Shown piece after piece: positions 228 to 45,453 of a stretch of DNA of 64,000 nucleotides. The DNA comes from Escherichia coli O157:H7 (lineage in GTDB: Bacteria > Pseudomonadota > Gammaproteobacteria > Enterobacterales > Enterobacteriaceae), in the NCBI RefSeq assembly GCF_013167455.1, contig NZ_CP038328.1, one strand, 5' to 3'. The first letter of the stretch is position 1; each line of letters opens with the position of its first letter. The notes under the pieces were generated by a model that saw nothing but the letters and a program-made list of their open reading frames with translations, ran no database searches and was not told where the DNA came from. Position numbers and translations under genes: made by a program.

Positions 228-2102
228 TCAGGAAACCAGCAGCTGGTTCATACGACGAATAAACAGGTTCGGATCTTCCAGCGTGCCGCGTTCTGCCAGC
301 AGTGCCTGATCCAGCAGCAGTTCTACCCACTCGCTGAACTTCGCTTCATCTTCAGTATCTGCCGCACGTTTCACCAGTACGTGATCCGGGTTCAGTTCGA
401 AGATGTATTTCACTTCTGGCACTTTCTGGCCCGCCGCAGCGAACAGTTTCGCCATCTGAGTGCTCATTTCGTCCGCGTCGGTCGAAACGATCGCTGGCGT
501 ATCGGTCAGACGGTGAGTCAGACGGACATCTTTCACGCGCTCGCCGAGCAGGGCTTTCACACGGTCGATGAACGGAGTCAGTGCTTTCTCCGCTTCTTTC
601 GCGCTCTCATCAACTTCGTCAGCCAGTTTTTCCAGCGACTCGTCAACTTTAGACACCGACTGGAACGGTTTACCGTCGAACTCAGTCAGATAGTTCATCA
701 TCCACTCATCGATGCGGTCGGAAAGCAGCAGAACTTCGATGCCTTTCTTACGCAGCAGTTCCAGGTGCGGGCTGCTCTTCGCTGCCGCATAGCTGTCTGC
801 AGTGATGTAGTAGATTTTCTCCTGCCCTTCTTTCATGCGGGAAACGTAGTCTTCCAGAGACACGGTCTGCGCAGAAGAATCGGTATGGGTAGAAGCAAAA
901 CGCAGCAATTTGGCGATCGCTTCCTGGTTAGCGAAATCTTCCGCCGGACCTTCTTTCAGTACCAGGCCAAACTGTTGCCAGAAGGTCTGGTATTTTTCCG
1001 CGTCGTCTTTCGCCAGTTTTTCCAGCATTTGCAGCACACGCTTGGTCAGCGCATTGCGCAGGTTACGCGTTACCGTGCTGTCCTGGAGGATTTCACGGGA
1101 AACGTTCAGCGGCAGATCGCTGGAGTCAATCAGACCACGCACGAAGCGCAGATAGTTCGGCATGAACTGTTCTGCGTCGTCCATGATGAACACACGCTGA
1201 ACATACAGTTTCAGGCCGTGTTTATGATCGCGGTTCCACATATCCCACGGAGCCTGGGACGGAATGTACAGCAGGCTGGTGTACTCCTGCTTACCTTCAA
1301 CACGGTTGTGGCTCCAGGTCAGCGGATCGTTAAAATCGTGGGCGATGTGTTTGTAGAACTCTTTGTACTCTTCATCGGTGATTTCCGACTTGTTACGAGT
1401 CCACAGCGCCTGCGCTTTGTTAATTTTCTCCCAGGAGATAACGGTTTCGCCGTCTTTCTCTTCGCGTTTTTCGATCTCTACCGGCAGCGCGATATGGTCG
1501 GAGTATTTGCTGATGATGGAACGCACGCGCCAGTCATCGAGGAACTCGTCTTCGCCTTCACGCAGATGCAGGGTGATTTCAGTACCACGATCTTCTTTGG
1601 TGATGTCGGCAACGGTATATTCACCTTCGCCAGCCGATTCCCAGAAGACGCCGTTTTCTGGTTTTTCGCCTGCCGCGCGAGTACGCACGGTCACTTTGTC
1701 GGCCACGATAAACGCAGAGTAGAAACCAACACCAAACTGACCGATCAGCTGGCTGTCTTTCGCCTGGTCAGAACCCAGGGATTCGAGGAATGATTTGGTA
1801 CCGGATTTAGCGATAGTCCCCAGATGGTCAATCACTTCGTCGCGGGTCATCCCCACGCCGTTATCGGAGATGGTCAGCGTGCGCTTGTCTTTATCGAAAG
1901 AGACACGAACGCGCAGTTCGCCATCACCTTCGTACAGGTCCGGGTTAGAGAGCGCACGGAAACGCAACTTGTCCGCCGCATCGGAGGCGTTAGAGATAAG
2001 CTCACGCAGGAAGATTTCTTTATTGGAATAGAGAGAATGGATCATCAGGTGCAGAAGCTGTTTCACTTCTGACTGAAAACCACGAGTTTCTTGTCCTTTC
2101 AT
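228..2102 (-). CDS. htpG: molecular chaperone HtpG (Hsp90), 624 aa
   Basis: Full-length ORF; N-terminus [42 protein letters not shown] matches HtpG. Confidence 0.97.
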
Positions 2103-2153
2103 GTAGGTCTACCTCAATAATGCCATTTTAAGGTTAAAAACAGGATGAGGGAG

Positions 2154-2182
2154 AGATGGGGACAAGGGAGAATAATTTCAAG
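2154..2182 (-). promoter_or_regulatory. sigma32 heat-shock promoter upstream of htpG (-35 CTTGAAA, -10 CCCCATCT on minus strand)
   Basis: Minus-strand sequence CTTGAAATTATTCTCCCTTGTCCCCATCT fits the sigma32 consensus and lies about 60 nt upstream of the htpG start. Confidence 0.6.
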
Positions 2183-2211
2183 CGAGAGCAGGTGATCCTG
2201 CTCTCGTTTGC

Positions 2212-2816
2212 TTAAAAACGAATCTTATGACGCCCGGCAAGGGAGTGTGACAGCGTGGTGCCATCGACCATTTCCAGTTCGCCGCCAACCGGTACGCCAT
2301 GAGCGATTCGGCTGGCTTCCACGTCATATTGCGCGCAAAGCTCGGCAATGTAGTTAGCGGTAGCTTCACCTTCAACCGTAGGGTTGGTGGCGAGGATCAC
2401 TTCAGTGATTTTTTCCTCTGCCAGACGCTGTTCCAGACGATCAAGGCCGATATCATCCGGACCGATGCCGTCCAGCGGTGACAGATGTCCCATCAACACA
2501 AAATAACGACCTGAAAACTGCCCCGTCTGCTCAATGGCGTAAATGTCCGCCGGACTCTCCACCACGCAGATTTGACCGTTTTCCTGACGACGCGGATTCG
2601 AACAGATGTTACAGACTTCCTGTTCGGTGAAGGTGCGGCAATCGGCGCAGTGGCCGATTTCCGACATCGCCCGGGTGAGCGCCTGCGCCAGACGCATCCC
2701 GCCGCTACGATCGCGCTGAAGCAGCGTGAACGCCATACGCTGCGCCGACTTCGGGCCAACGCCCGGCAGACAGCGCAGTGCTTCCATAAGCTGTGTTAAC
2801 AGCGGGCTGGTTTGCA

Positions 2817-2817
<1 letters not shown>
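2212..2817 (-). CDS. recR: recombination protein RecR, 201 aa
   Basis: ORF with C4 zinc finger and Toprim region; start overlaps ybaB stop (TGATG). Confidence 0.95.
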
Positions 2818-3161
<344 letters not shown>

Positions 3162-3198
3162 TCACGTTAAGGATGACGAACGTAAGCTGTGCTTACGA

Positions 3199-5130
3199 TC
3201 AAATGGGGCGGATACTGTCTTCATCCAGCTCCGCATCGAAGAACCGACGCAGGGTCTGAATATTATTATCCGCAATAATGGACTCGCGCGCCTGCGCAAG
3301 TTTTTCTTCGTATATCGCCTGACGCCACTCCAGCGGCGTACGCACCGCGGGATTATCATCTTCAACTATAGTCAGTTCAACCGTTGAACCTTTTAACATG
3401 CTCAACGCTTCAGCCAGTTTTTGCTGTGCACCGCGGTTGTTCAAATGCCGCTGAGAGGAGCGCAAATGCAGACATACTGCGTTGTCGCTCTCCTCTTTCC
3501 AGGCATTTAACGCCACCTGTTCGACCAGTTTTGGTAGCGAAAGTTGACTCACCTGAGCCGCCCACGCGTCGCGCTCAATGGCTTCTGCCGCCAGCTTCGC
3601 CGCCAGTTCCGGCGTTTTTTCATGTTCCAGCGCTTTTTTCAGCGCCTTCGGTGTGGCGACCACTTCTTTTTGCTGCATCACTGGAGTGGTCGCCTTCCAG
3701 CGATACGCTTCTTTTTTAGCTGGCGCTTTTTCCAGCGCCGATGGCACCGGACGCGCCTGAACGCGATCGGTGACCGAAGCCAGTCTTTCCAGCGCAGCGT
3801 TATTCACCGGCCGCGCGCGGGTAGCGGCTGCCGGTTCACTCTTTTTTGCTTTGGTTGCTCCCTGCACGCGCTGCAACTGCTGGCGCGCCGCCAGCACCTG
3901 GCTGGTGGTTTCCGGGAGCGGTACAGTCGGTGCCTGCTGCGGCGCTGATTGCGGTTGCGGCGGCACCTGGGTTGGCGTCATTACTGCCGTTGGCGCGACG
4001 GGTGCAAAGGACTGGCGTGGCACTTCTGGCTCAGGCAGCGGCATACGCGGATGGAACGCCAGCGCGCGCAGCAGCGTCATCTCAACGCCCATGCGGCGGT
4101 CCGGCGCATACGGTAATTCTTTGCGACCAATCAACAGCGTCTGATAGTAAAGCTGAATATCCGTCGGCGGTATGGTGCGCGCCAGTTCACGCATCCGCAG
4201 CTCGATGGCGGCCATGTCGTTGCCAAGTGCAGCAGGCGAAAGTTGTACCATCGCAATACGATGCAACAGGCCGAGCATTTCCACCAGCAACGCTTCCCAC
4301 TCGATACCACGGGCAGCGGCTTCATTAATCAGCGCCATTACGCGCTCGCCGTTGGCCTCGACCATCGCTTCAACCAGCGACAGCGCCTGATCGTCGTCAA
4401 GCGTACCCAGCATCGCACTGACCGCCTGGGTTGAAACCTGGCCGTCACCGCTGGCAATCGCCTGGTCGGTCAGACTTAAGGCATCTCGCAGGCTGCCTTC
4501 AGCGGCGCGCGCCAGCAATTGCAGCGCCCGCGGCTCGTGAGCGATATGTTCTTCATTGAGGATGTGCTCAAGTTGATGACGAATTTGCTCGACATCCAGC
4601 GCCTTGAGATGAAATTGCAAACAGCGCGACAAAATCGTCACCGGCAATTTCTGTGGATCGGTCGTCGCCAGCAGAAACTTAACGTGCTCCGGCGGCTCTT
4701 CAAGGGTTTTTAACAGTGCGTTAAAGCTGTGGCGCGACAGCATATGCACTTCGTCGATGAGATAAACTTTGAAACGACCACGCGCCGGAGCGTACTGGAC
4801 GTTATCCAGCAGGTCGCGGGTATCTTCAACTTTGGTGCGCGAGGCGGCGTCGATTTCAATCAGATCGACAAAGCGCCCCTGCTCGATTTCACGACAGTTA
4901 TCGCACACGCCGCACGGCGTCGCGGTAATGCCGGTTTCGCAGTTTAGCCCCTTCGCCAGCAGTCGGGCGATAGAGGTTTTTCCGACGCCACGGGTGCCGG
5001 AAAAAAGATAAGCATGATGAATACGCCCTAACGACAAGCCGTTCGCCAGTGCGGTCAGCACATGTTCCTGGCCGACGACGTCAGCAAAGGTTTGTGGGCG
5101 CCATTTTCGGGCTAAGACCTGATAACTCAT
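3199..5130 (-). CDS. dnaX: DNA polymerase III subunits tau/gamma, 643 aa (tau)
   Basis: MSYQVLARKWRPQTFADVVGQEHV..., AAA+ Walker motifs; internal frameshift site present. Confidence 0.97.
   Translation of the reverse strand: MSYQVLARKWRPQTFADVVGQEHVLTALANGLSLGRIHHAYLFSGTRGVGKTSIARLLAKGLNCETGITATPCGVCDNCREIEQGRFVDLIEIDAASRTKVEDTRDLLDNVQYAPARGRFKVYLIDEVHMLSRHSFNALLKTLEEPPEHVKFLLATTDPQKLPVTILSRCLQFHLKALDVEQIRHQLEHILNEEHIAHEPRALQLLARAAEGSLRDALSLTDQAIASGDGQVSTQAVSAMLGTLDDDQALSLVEAMVEANGERVMALINEAAARGIEWEALLVEMLGLLHRIAMVQLSPAALGNDMAAIELRMRELARTIPPTDIQLYYQTLLIGRKELPYAPDRRMGVEMTLLRALAFHPRMPLPEPEVPRQSFAPVAPTAVMTPTQVPPQPQSAPQQAPTVPLPETTSQVLAARQQLQRVQGATKAKKSEPAAATRARPVNNAALERLASVTDRVQARPVPSALEKAPAKKEAYRWKATTPVMQQKEVVATPKALKKALEHEKTPELAAKLAAEAIERDAWAAQVSQLSLPKLVEQVALNAWKEESDNAVCLHLRSSQRHLNNRGAQQKLAEALSMLKGSTVELTIVEDDNPAVRTPLEWRQAIYEEKLAQARESIIADNNIQTLRRFFDAELDEDSIRPI
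3841..3847 (-). promoter_or_regulatory. dnaX programmed -1 ribosomal frameshift heptamer A-AAA-AAG (codons 429-430), giving gamma ending ..KKE-stop
   Basis: Plus strand CTTTTTT at 3841-3847; minus-strand reading GCA AAA AAG AGT GAA gives AKKSE, and the -1 frame gives GAG TGA; GC-rich hairpin just downstream on the minus strand (about 3808-3838). Confidence 0.85.
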
Positions 5131-12645: not shown

Positions 12646-15798
<3,153 letters not shown>

Positions 15799-15816
15799 TA
15801 CAACGTGTAATCACTA

Positions 15817-15841
15817 AGGCCGCGTAAGCGGCCTTTTTTAT
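15817..15841 (+). terminator. rho-independent terminator after acrB (GGCCGC-GTAA-GCGGCC followed by TTTTTTA)
   Basis: Hairpin plus T-run read directly 19 nt after the acrB stop. Confidence 0.8.
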
Positions 15842-16343
15842 GCATAACCTACGAACATTAAGGAGTAATTGAACCACCAACTCAGGATCTCATACGAAAA
15901 CCAGTATTAACCACGTATAAAATTCATAAAAAATACTGATTGTTAGTTAATTTATATTAAGTAGCGCTAATAGATTTAATAATCCATAATCATTTAGAGG
16001 CTATTCTTAATTATTTGCGGTAATTCTTTATTCATTCCTCGGTTATTACGTCATATTCAGAGCAATCCTGGTATTAGTGTCACCAATTTCATCTGGCGAT
16101 AATCCTGAAATGTTATGAACAGTTCGAGCAAACTGCTTTTACCTGCTGCGGGTTGGTGCTAGTATGAAAAAGTGAGCCCTGTCCCGCTTCCTTCCTAATT
16201 GTAATTTTTCGTAATAATGCGATGAAAACCTGCAAAGAGTGGCTTATAGTTAAGCTAACAAACGAGAGGGCAAGTCCAGGTCAGTAAGTTTTTTCCATCC
16301 CGAAAGGTGTCCGTTAGTTCAACCGCTAAGAAGGGGACGCGTT

Positions 16344-16718
16344 ATGGATGAATACTCACCCAAAAGACATGATATCGCACAGCTTAAGTTTCTCTGTGAA
16401 ACTCTGTATCATGACTGCCTTGCAAACCTTGAAGAAAGCAATCATGGCTGGGTTAACGACCCAACCTCGGCGATCAACCTCCAGTTGAATGAACTGATTG
16501 AGCATATTGCGACCTTCGCACTTAATTACAAAATTAAGTATAATGAAGACAATAAGCTCATTGAGCAGATCGACGAATATCTGGATGACACCTTTATGTT
16601 GTTCAGTAGTTATGGTATTAATATGCAGGATCTTCAGAAATGGCGGAAGTCAGGTAATCGACTATTCCGTTGTTTTGTCAATGCGACGAAAGAGAATCCT
16701 GCGAGTTTATCTTGTTAG
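16344..16718 (+). CDS. tomB: Hha toxicity modulator TomB (YbaJ), 124 aa
   Basis: [40 protein letters not shown]..; immediately upstream of hha. Confidence 0.92.
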
Positions 16719-43518: not shown

Positions 43519-44994
43519 ATGTCCAGTCAATATTTACGTATTTTTCAACAGCCGCGTTCAGCCATATTGCTGATCCTGGGTTTTGCTTCCGGGCTACCGC
43601 TCGCCCTGACATCCGGCACCTTACAGGCCTGGATGACGGTCGAGAATATCGATCTCAAAACCATTGGTTTCTTCTCTCTGGTAGGCCAGGCTTACGTTTT
43701 TAAATTCCTCTGGTCACCGCTGATGGACCGCTACACGCCCCCATTTTTTGGGCGGCGGCGCGGTTGGCTGCTCGCCACGCAAATCCTGTTATTAGTCGCC
43801 ATTGCGGCGATGGGTTTTCTCGAACCAGGCACCCAACTCCGCTGGATGGCGGCGCTGGCGGTGGTGATCGCTTTTTGCTCTGCCTCCCAGGATATTGTCT
43901 TCGATGCGTGGAAAACCGATGTGCTCCCGGCAGAAGAACGTGGTGCGGGCGCGGCAATCAGCGTTCTGGGTTACCGTTTAGGGATGCTGGTTTCCGGCGG
44001 CCTAGCCCTGTGGCTGGCAGATAAATGGCTGGGCTGGCAGGGCATGTACTGGTTGATGGCGGCGCTGTTGATCCCCTGTATTATCGCGACGTTGCTTGCA
44101 CCAGAACCAACCGACACCATTCCTGTGCCCAAAACGCTGGAACAAGCGGTTGTTGCACCTCTGCGAGATTTCTTTGGTCGCAATAATGCCTGGCTTATTT
44201 TGCTTCTTATCGTGCTGTATAAGCTGGGCGACGCATTCGCCATGAGCCTGACAACCACGTTTTTGATTCGCGGCGTCGGGTTTGATGCGGGTGAAGTAGG
44301 CGTGGTAAACAAAACGCTTGGCTTACTAGCGACCATTGTTGGCGCATTGTACGGTGGGATTTTGATGCAGCGCCTGTCACTGTTCCGGGCACTGCTGATT
44401 TTCGGCATTTTACAAGGTGCGTCTAACGCTGGTTACTGGCTGCTGTCGATTACTGATAAGCATCTCTACAGCATGGGCGCAGCCGTCTTTTTCGAAAACC
44501 TCTGTGGCGGGATGGGCACATCAGCCTTTGTCGCGCTGTTAATGACGCTATGTAATAAGTCATTTTCCGCTACTCAATTTGCCCTGCTCTCAGCGCTTTC
44601 TGCTGTAGGGCGAGTTTATGTCGGCCCCGTGGCGGGTTGGTTTGTTGAAGCACACGGCTGGTCGACATTCTATCTATTCTCCGTCGCCGCTGCCGTACCA
44701 GGGCTTATTTTGCTGCTGGTTTGCCGCCAGACGCTTGAATATACACGAGTAAATGACAACTTTATCTCCCGTACCGCATATCCGGCAGGTTATGCCTTTG
44801 CCATGTGGACACTGGCGGCGGGCGTCAGCCTGTTGGCCGTGTGGTTACTGCTATTGACGATGGACGCGCTGGATTTGACGCACTTCTCTTTCCTGCCTGC
44901 TCTGCTGGAAGTCGGGGTTTTAGTCGCCCTTTCTGGCGTCGTGCTTGGTGGTTTGCTGGATTATCTGGCGCTACGAAAAACGCATCTGACGTAA
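43519..44994 (+). CDS. ampG: muropeptide (anhydromuropeptide) permease AmpG, 491 aa
   Basis: MSSQYLRIFQQPRSAILLILGFASGLPLALTSGTLQAWMTVENIDLKTIGFFSLVGQAYVFKFLWSPLMDRY..; MFS-like multi-TM. Confidence 0.95.
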   Translation: MSSQYLRIFQQPRSAILLILGFASGLPLALTSGTLQAWMTVENIDLKTIGFFSLVGQAYVFKFLWSPLMDRYTPPFFGRRRGWLLATQILLLVAIAAMGFLEPGTQLRWMAALAVVIAFCSASQDIVFDAWKTDVLPAEERGAGAAISVLGYRLGMLVSGGLALWLADKWLGWQGMYWLMAALLIPCIIATLLAPEPTDTIPVPKTLEQAVVAPLRDFFGRNNAWLILLLIVLYKLGDAFAMSLTTTFLIRGVGFDAGEVGVVNKTLGLLATIVGALYGGILMQRLSLFRALLIFGILQGASNAGYWLLSITDKHLYSMGAAVFFENLCGGMGTSAFVALLMTLCNKSFSATQFALLSALSAVGRVYVGPVAGWFVEAHGWSTFYLFSVAAAVPGLILLLVCRQTLEYTRVNDNFISRTAYPAGYAFAMWTLAAGVSLLAVWLLLLTMDALDLTHFSFLPALLEVGVLVALSGVVLGGLLDYLALRKTHLT

Positions 44995-45453
44995 TCTGTA
45001 AATATTATTTAGCTGTAGTAATCACTCGCCGTAATTATTACGGCTAAATAAACATCAGCATCGCTTATTAATATTTGTTCTTTTGTGCGGCTTAGCGTTT
45101 GGAAATTATTGGCGCCATTTATAAATTCTATTTTTCTTACACGATTCAGCTAATGAGTCTTTATTTTCTCACCACCAAGTTGTCACTCCAATGATAATTA
45201 TTTGTTAAATAATTGTTTTATTTCGCATTGATTATACCAATTGCCCGTCCAGACTTCTTCTGCACTCCCCTTTTGTTATAACGCCCTTTTGCAACAGCTT
45301 CTTAAAATCAACCTGATATGTTTTGCAACATATGTGACCTGACAGCCAAATCCAAGTAACAGGAATTTAATCATGTTTACAGTAATGTAACCTTCCCGTA
45401 AAATGCCCACACATTTTAAACGCCACCAGATCCCGTGGAATTGAGGTCGTTAA

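Follow-up and report, generated by a model that had tools for sequence, protein, structure and literature searches.

The spacer between acrB and tomB (positions 15799–16343 of the window, the 64,000-nucleotide stretch of Escherichia coli O157:H7 DNA analysed here) is very probably a native, multi-input transcriptional control region of tomB-hha and not one long leader. Hha is a co-repressor working with H-NS and influences virulence, biofilm formation and horizontally acquired genes; for this reason it matters how tomB-hha is switched on. Literature and databases already cover the control region, both its promoters with their start sites and the inputs from H-NS, CpxR and PdhR. Papers naming the acrB-tomB spacer were not found in a literature search. 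The known elements now have base-level coordinates (Table 1), and the interval has been struck off the list of candidate loci for a small RNA (sRNA) or small protein.

Table 1. Features located in and next to the acrB-tomB spacer; positions refer to the window.
Feature	Position	Strand	Details
acrB intrinsic terminator	15816–15841	+	8-bp stem AAGGCCGC/GCGGCCTT, loop GTAA, T6 tail
AT-rich upstream tract	15831–16120		200-bp windows <30% GC
Escherichia-specific segment, ~72 bp	15842–15913		only gaps aligned in nearly all other genera
Rho termination region, best coordinate	15919	+	K-12 481133 (minus strand), Adams 2021
Weak orphan start, towards acrB	15948	-	EDL933 547169 (+) (PMC10469882)
Orphan starts and −10-like CATAAT (15985–15990)	15985–15997	+	EDL933 547121/547120 (−), corresponding to 15996/15997 (PMC10469882)
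Decayed RcsAB-box-like palindrome	16057–16070		E. coli TCAGAGCAATCCTG; other genera TTAGGAATATTCCTAA or TAAGAATATTCCTG
PdhR box ATTAGTGTCACCAAT	16073–16087		1 mismatch to ATTGGTnnnACCAAT
15-codon ORF, motif TAAC-N4-ATGAA	16115–16162	+	judged non-coding
Promoter P2	16138–16172	+	−35 TTTACC 16138–16143, TG 16157–16158, −10 TAGTAT 16160–16165, TSS 16172
CpxR-type tandem box GTAAT-TTTTC-GTAAT	16201–16215	+	centre about −49 from the P1 start
Promoter P1 (main)	16222–16257	+	−35 ATGAAA 16222–16227, −10 TATAGT 16245–16250, TSS 16257
tomB-hha 5'UTR, 87 nt	16257–16343	+	CCATCCC 16295–16301, SD GAAGGGGA 16331–16338, extra start 16290
tomB CDS	16344–16718	+	124 aa; hha next

The acrB open reading frame ended at 15798 and tomB, followed by hha and then maa, began with the ATG at 16344, leaving a gap of 545 bp. 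Given these two ends and the position of the acrB terminator, the interval 15842–16343 (502 bp) is exactly the part of the spacer past the terminator. The spacer matched that of E. coli O157:H7 EDL933 exactly over 545 bp. When 5426 complete E. coli genomes were searched, it was present in 5423, with a median of one copy each. No annotated feature was present inside it across those genomes, and the curated K-12 record has nothing annotated between tomB and acrB. It is largely the K-12 spacer as well: 4 of 545 bases differed from MG1655 (99.3% identity), and starts beyond the main promoter had already been published. Published positions were converted to window positions by K-12 = 497052 − window position and EDL933 = 563117 − window position.

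The initial annotation had described the interval past the terminator as a strongly AT-rich non-coding leader that has A/T tracts, lacks ORFs of at least 60 aa and is, in its composition, typical of H-NS-bound, curved regulatory DNA. Non-coding regulatory DNA with mapped promoters was indeed found between the acrB terminator and tomB-hha. The GC content at 15842–16343 was 37.6%, compared with 51.2% for the whole window, and tract densities were raised, with 15.9 A4+/T4+ tracts per kb (9.8 window-wide) and 21.9 W6+ runs per kb (8.9 window-wide). Only 3.1% of the 502-bp windows across the stretch were equally AT-rich. The GC content was 29.7% at 15842–16060 and 26.7% at 15880–16040, and it was 43.8% in the promoter-proximal half (16061–16343). 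Windows of 200 bp with less than 30% GC formed only three regions in the 64 kb, namely the upstream tract listed in Table 1, 60081–60290 and 60991–61630; the extreme AT-richness of the spacer is limited to about 280 bp adjoining acrB. The longest ORF inside the interval had 40 aa (16235–16113, minus strand, TTG start), and one of 44 aa (15880–15746, minus strand) ran into acrB. H-NS binding was consistent with the low GC content relative to the surroundings at 15842–16060 and is documented, since the acrB-tomB spacer is marked 'HNS', meaning that it contains H-NS binding sites, in a genomic SELEX study (Shimada 2014, PMC3946193). A modest AA/TT phasing of about 10 bp is compatible with curvature: the AA/TT power at 9.5–10.5 bp was reached by only 10–22 of 1000 shuffles, which is a weak test of curvature, and the spacer had just eight A4+/T4+ tracts without an obvious regular array. 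The best match in the spacer to the high-affinity H-NS motif TCGATAAATT had two mismatches and lay at 16203–16212, within the CpxR-type box.

The acrB terminator was situated 18 nt past the acrB stop, and its stem of 8 bp with six G-C pairs and its 4-nt loop are those of an intrinsic terminator. The stem was retained in 76 other Enterobacteriaceae, with a paired swap from GCG/CGC to GCA/TGC. The Rho termination region downstream of it was called in K-12 as orphan class, with a Rho score of 2.08 and p = 5.6e-6; no Term-seq 3' ends were reported inside the tomB 5'UTR in the same study (Adams 2021, PMC7815308). Transcription of acrAB would thus end at the intrinsic terminator, backed up by Rho termination at about 15919. 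The tract of about 280 bp with less than 30% GC would be H-NS-bound; the starts mapped in it, on either strand, are no more than weak orphans. H-NS and Rho together would silence this distal part.

TomB-anchored loci were retrieved from 80 species, and acrB and tomB were adjacent in 76 of them. The conserved blocks comprised the terminator, the CpxR-type box, P1 and the greater part of the 5'UTR, in which CCATCCC and the SD GAAGGGGA were both kept. The motif TAAC-N4-ATGAA at 16104–16119 was conserved too, and weaker distal blocks were seen, among them those at 15930–15990. By eye, none of the conserved blocks held a convincing consensus site for IHF, Fur, Lrp, sigmaE, sigma28 or DnaA. We also considered a foreign origin for the AT-rich tract, which would then be a remnant left by horizontal acquisition or by a mobile element instead of native regulatory sequence. 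Its GC content is low relative to its flanks, the segment of about 72 bp next to the terminator is specific to Escherichia, and IS1 was inserted into the spacer in several strains. We give this reading almost no credence, as the spacer was syntenic and alike in length (435–559 bp) and GC content (35–40%) in the 76 species, which belong to many genera. Moreover, it was typically present only once in a genome, and the reference sequence contained neither transposase remnants nor terminal repeats.

Within the native control region, the main promoter P1 was found by a consensus scan. Its hexamers, ATGAAA-17-TATAGT, matched the consensus at 9 of 12 positions with sigma70-type spacing, and the −10 hexamer was kept in all displayed species. 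The same ATGAAA/TATAGT pair is listed for tomB-hha in a published set of constitutive promoters recognised by RpoD (Shimada 2014, PMC3946193). SMRT-Cappable-seq of K-12 gave a single tomB-hha start at 480795, which corresponds to 16257 and lies 7 nt past the P1 −10 hexamer, and Cappable-seq of EDL933 gave the same position (546860), classed as a gene TSS in all eight conditions with a signal of 540–3330 (PMC10469882). In Salmonella, the proximal promoter p922 was the only active one among three predicted promoters tested. The second promoter, P2, combined TTTACC-16-TAGTAT and a TG ahead of the −10 hexamer with a mapped start: EDL933 position 546945 (16172) was a gene TSS in all conditions, and bTSSfinder assigned the boxes tttacc/tagtat to it (PMC10469882). 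The P2 hexamers had been picked out of the alignment before the TSS tables were examined, and −10-like elements were present at the syntenic place in other genera. The additional EDL933 gene TSS at 546827 (16290) was condition-specific and regulated (PMC10469882). Since the K-12 SMRT-Cappable-seq data list 16257 alone, the evidence for P2 and for the orphan starts comes from a single EDL933 dataset. IS1 insertions disrupted the tomB-hha promoter region in some isolates; among the isolates with IS1, TUM13773 has lost 15907–16286.

Based on the mapped starts, the true leader is 87 nt long when transcription begins at P1 and 172 nt long when it begins at P2, and the rest is upstream DNA; calling the whole interval a leader was therefore wrong for most of its length. 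We asked whether this transcribed leader, which begins at 16172 or 16257 and reaches 16343, forms a structured RNA that tunes tomB translation in cis. In such an RNA, the anti-SD sequence CCAUCCC (16295–16301) would pair with GGGGA(U/C)G at the ribosome-binding site, and the leader could respond to temperature as a thermometer or be a target of CsrA or of an sRNA. CCATCCC and the SD were among the best-conserved bases of the spacer, and RNAalifold paired UCCC with GGGG in 17 of the 17 species tested. The P2 leader was also folded more stably than most of its shuffles (z = −1.87, 8 of 200 shuffles). Nevertheless, we regard a structured leader as unlikely. The UCCC:GGGG pairing was invariant on both sides and hence without covariation, the RNAalifold structure had 9 pairs and −5.8 kcal/mol, and its single covarying pair fell within the tomB coding sequence. 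The P1 leader alone had a folding z of −0.04, the leader matched no Rfam family, and E. coli weakens the pairing with GGGGACG compared with GGGGATG in most other genera.

The initial annotation had also left room for an unannotated sRNA or small protein. Neither emerged from the analysis, which returned no Rfam match, internal terminator, excess structure, conserved peptide or family or database match. An sRNA encoded in the AT-rich distal part could start on the plus strand at 15996/15997; alternatively, it could start on the minus strand at 15948 and would then be antisense to the 3' end of acrB. These orphan starts were reproducible in the EDL933 Cappable-seq data, so that such an RNA would have a start of its own in that one dataset, and the −10-like CATAAT was located 6–7 nt upstream of 15996, with a TATAAT aligned nearby in other genera. 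We consider this sRNA very unlikely, as spurious promoters are a known trait of DNA that is AT-rich and bound by H-NS, and the remaining evidence pointed the other way. Promoter and terminator prediction recovered the acrB terminator and the P1 hexamers, and no intrinsic terminator was found within 15842–16343 on either strand. In Rfam searches with E-values up to 10, only the acrB terminator, resembling a Trp-leader terminator, and noise were returned. The RNA from 15996 to 16175 folded less stably than its shuffles (z = +1.43). The stretch contained no Term-seq 3' end except the Rho region at 15919, which is upstream of the plus-strand start (PMC7815308). Finally, the starts at 15996/15997 and 15948 were not significantly regulated in EDL933 (PMC10469882), and they were absent from the K-12 SMRT-Cappable-seq list.

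It appears extremely improbable that the spacer is translated into a small protein or a regulatory leader peptide, with ATG 16115 (15 codons) and ATG 16222 (21 codons) as possible starts. The former ATG was retained in 71 of 77 Enterobacteriaceae spacers, always with a short ORF behind it, and the latter ORF lies within the P2-derived 5'UTR. A small-ORF scan with a ribosome-binding-site check nonetheless gave no credible start, neither ATG being preceded by an SD. Across the 77 spacers, the ORF at 16115 varied from 5 to 46 codons and encoded unrelated peptides. The ORF at 16222 varied from 3 to 36 codons overall and from 3 to 6 outside Escherichia, again with unrelated peptides. ATG 16222 is simply part of the conserved P1 −35 hexamer (A/G)TGAAA. 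ATG 16115 lies upstream of both mapped tomB starts, and a K-12 SNP at 16155 results in an earlier stop in its ORF. The spacer ORFs had no Pfam or NCBIfam matches, their exact sequences were absent among about 15 billion proteins, and the K-12 curated annotation places nothing in the spacer. In the part of a survey of Enterobacteriaceae intergenic small ORFs that its supplementary files make up, as far as these were covered, tomB was not mentioned. The sole start with an AGGAG (15861–15865) ahead of it, at a spacing of just 3 nt, belonged to a TTG mini-ORF of 13 codons (15869–15910). This ORF was taken as non-functional filler, its start and frame being lost even in E. albertii.

The control region contained a CpxR-type box upstream of P1. 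The CpxR box consensus is GTAAA-N5-GTAAA, to which the sequence GTAATTTTTCGTAAT matched at 8 of 10 positions. The window held 58 equally good matches, so that the match alone is not significant and the CpxR assignment rests on conservation and the literature. The core TTGTAATTTTTCGTAAT (16199–16215) was identical in 18 of 18 displayed species and was kept in nearly all 77 spacers. Both tomB and hha are CpxR targets in RegulonDB and tomB is in the CpxR iModulon, while both genes are absent from the directly bound CpxR targets determined by ChIP-exo (PMC7657598). The box lies between the P2 and P1 starts, a position typical of a response-regulator activator, and also within the P2 transcript. 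We infer that CpxR~P may activate P1 from this box in E. coli.

The PdhR box was one of only two sites in the 64 kb with at most one mismatch to the PdhR pattern, the other being at 45227–45241 in the ampG-cyoA spacer. Both tomB-hha, a direct target, and cyoABCDE are published PdhR targets (PMC3265435). At up to three mismatches, the pattern occurred 28 times in the window against 27 expected; as this looser search is at chance level, only the matches with at most one mismatch are informative. In the alignment, the PdhR box was not conserved outside Escherichia, and a repressor would not usually be expected to bind as far upstream of the P2 start as this box lies (85–99 bp). The published pyruvate-responsive input would be provided by this box, with PdhR presumably acting through it.

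Next to the PdhR box, the alignment contained a palindrome resembling an RcsAB box. The RcsAB box operator consensus is reportedly TaAGaatatTCctA, said to have been given by Wehland and Bernhard in 2000. Of the 77 spacers, 53 contained the pattern TAAGAATATTCCTA (half-sites TTAGGAA / TAAGA) with at most two mismatches at the syntenic place, compared with 0.7% of shuffles. The TTAGGAA half-site of RcsB is structurally documented (PMC5829831). Relative to RcsAB operators, the site had 0–2 mismatches in Citrobacter, Salmonella, Enterobacter, Klebsiella and Raoultella, Kosakonia and others, and five in Escherichia; at this chance level, the E. coli sequence does not qualify as an RcsAB box. An alternative interpretation of the palindrome as an RNA hairpin was considered, as the plus-strand arms of many variants could still pair if G-U pairs are allowed. 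It was dropped, since no major TSS puts the palindrome in an abundant transcript and the match to a DNA consensus is simpler. Further upstream, an inverted repeat, CTTATT...AATAAG, covaried between Citrobacter and Enterobacter and was degenerate in E. coli, and a TATAAT hexamer aligned at 15978–15983 in other genera. In most Enterobacteriaceae, tomB-hha may receive a third input, one from envelope stress, through the distal half of the spacer, with only a decayed version left in Escherichia; we make this suggestion tentatively and consider it possible more than probable. The parts of this input may be the RcsAB/RcsB box, some 320 bp ahead of tomB, a TATAAT distal promoter after the covarying inverted repeat, and TAAC-N4-ATGAA. 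If this were true, the Cpx and Rcs systems of envelope stress would, given the CpxR box, converge on Hha/TomB, and the orphan start at 15996/15997 would be the Escherichia remnant of an Rcs-responsive module. No publication on Rcs control of tomB-hha was found in the literature search.

Transcription of tomB-hha is initiated at two tandem promoters of sigma70/sigmaS type, at 16172 from P2 and at 16257 from P1, the strong one. The resulting 5'UTR of 172 or 87 nt ends in the SD GAAGGGGA ahead of the tomB ATG. For studies of Hha regulation, the analysis adds two modest observations, namely the Rcs-like box outside Escherichia and the disruption of the promoter by IS1 in some isolates.

Besides the RcsAB operators, three known systems can be compared with the acrB-tomB spacer. 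Like H-NS-bound AT-rich intergenic regions with spurious or silenced promoters, it has about 280 bp with less than 30% GC, a published H-NS mark, weak orphan starts on both strands and a called Rho termination region. Unlike acquired regions of this kind, the tract is native and syntenic family-wide, and was not horizontally acquired. CpxR-activated promoters share with P1 the tandem pentamers with 10-bp spacing just upstream of a weak −35 hexamer (ATGAAA); they differ in their half-sites, which are GTAAT here and not GTAAA. The tomB-hha orthologue ymoB-ymoA of Yersinia pseudotuberculosis likewise has two tandem starts, 188 and 106 nt upstream of ymoB (172 and 87 nt upstream of tomB in E. coli). 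Its CpxR motif is also located between the two starts, some 50 bp ahead of the proximal one (PMC13353760). CpxR~P bound the ymoBA fragment and raised promoter activity (PMC13353760). Compared with Y. pseudotuberculosis ymoBA, the E. coli spacer has in addition a putative PdhR box and the very AT-rich tract by acrB.

The tomB coding sequence, which begins at 16344, was found to harbour separate promoters for hha. Two start sites published for strain EDL933 fall within the gene (see the table), so that the 'toxin' gene hha can be transcribed without tomB. Published Term-seq data place 3' ends inside tomB and at the tomB-hha junction, which hints at premature termination within tomB. Upstream of the gene, the 5'UTR contained an additional start site lying in a conserved block, GGTCAGTAAG, for which a sigma24-type promoter (aaacga / tcagt) was predicted by the software of the source paper.

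The acrB-tomB spacer of three E. coli isolates (retrieved loci L083, L084 and L085) was independently interrupted by IS1. The replacement in TUM13773 had removed both tomB promoters together with the candidate CpxR box. Two distal elements of the spacer were also observed. A TAA(C/G)-N3-4-(A/G)ATGA(A/T) motif was kept across most Enterobacteriaceae spacers; it could be tied neither to the consensus of a transcription factor nor to a function in a promoter. The second element was an inverted repeat, CTTATT...AATAAG (spacer of approximately 27 nt), followed downstream by a TATAAT hexamer; it stood out best in loci from Citrobacter and Enterobacter (for example, L009 and L018) and was degenerate in Escherichia, and its flanking bases covaried between genera. 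Directly 3' of the acrB terminator, an Escherichia-specific insert contained AGGAG and, 3 nt further on, a 13-codon ORF starting with TTG, which stopped 9 nt short of the Rho-region coordinate (15919). Since neither AGGAG nor the ORF was conserved, even in E. albertii, their sequence is probably a chance occurrence.

Features of the tomB-hha region and of other AT-rich segments (window coordinates)
Feature	Window position	Published coordinate	Details
Escherichia-specific insert	15861-15910		
IS1, TUM13773	15907-16286		replaced by IS1
IS1, 14EC007	after 15936		target 15929-15936; 8-bp duplication AAAAATAC
IS1, B19695	after 15985		target 15977-15985; orientation opposite to 14EC007; ~9-bp duplication
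Inverted repeat with TATAAT hexamer	15936-15983		
Conserved motif	16104-16119		
Additional TSS, 5'UTR	16290	EDL933 546827	condition-specific, significantly regulated
hha promoter	16515-16544	EDL933 546566 (TSS)	TTCGCA-18-TATAAT; TSS 16551
Second internal hha TSS	~16628	K-12 480424 / EDL933 546488	
Term-seq 3' end	16416	K-12 480636	flagged within Rho termination region
Term-seq 3' end	16613	K-12 480439	
Term-seq 3' end	16745	K-12 480307	
AT-rich island	44961-45390		200-bp GC <30-35%; ampG-cyoA spacer
PdhR box (predicted)	45227-45241		ATTGATTATACCAAT
AT-rich island	60081-60290		200-bp GC <30-35%
AT-rich island	60991-61630		200-bp GC <30-35%

Besides the acrB-tomB spacer, strongly AT-rich islands occurred at three further positions, and the lowest GC content in the 64-kb window was 25.9% over 502 bp, at approximately 61031. 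Among these three islands, the one inspected was the AT-rich ampG-cyoA spacer. It contained a near-perfect predicted PdhR box that lies 213 nt ahead of the cyoA start codon (ATG, 45454), which is consistent with the published control of cyoABCDE by PdhR.
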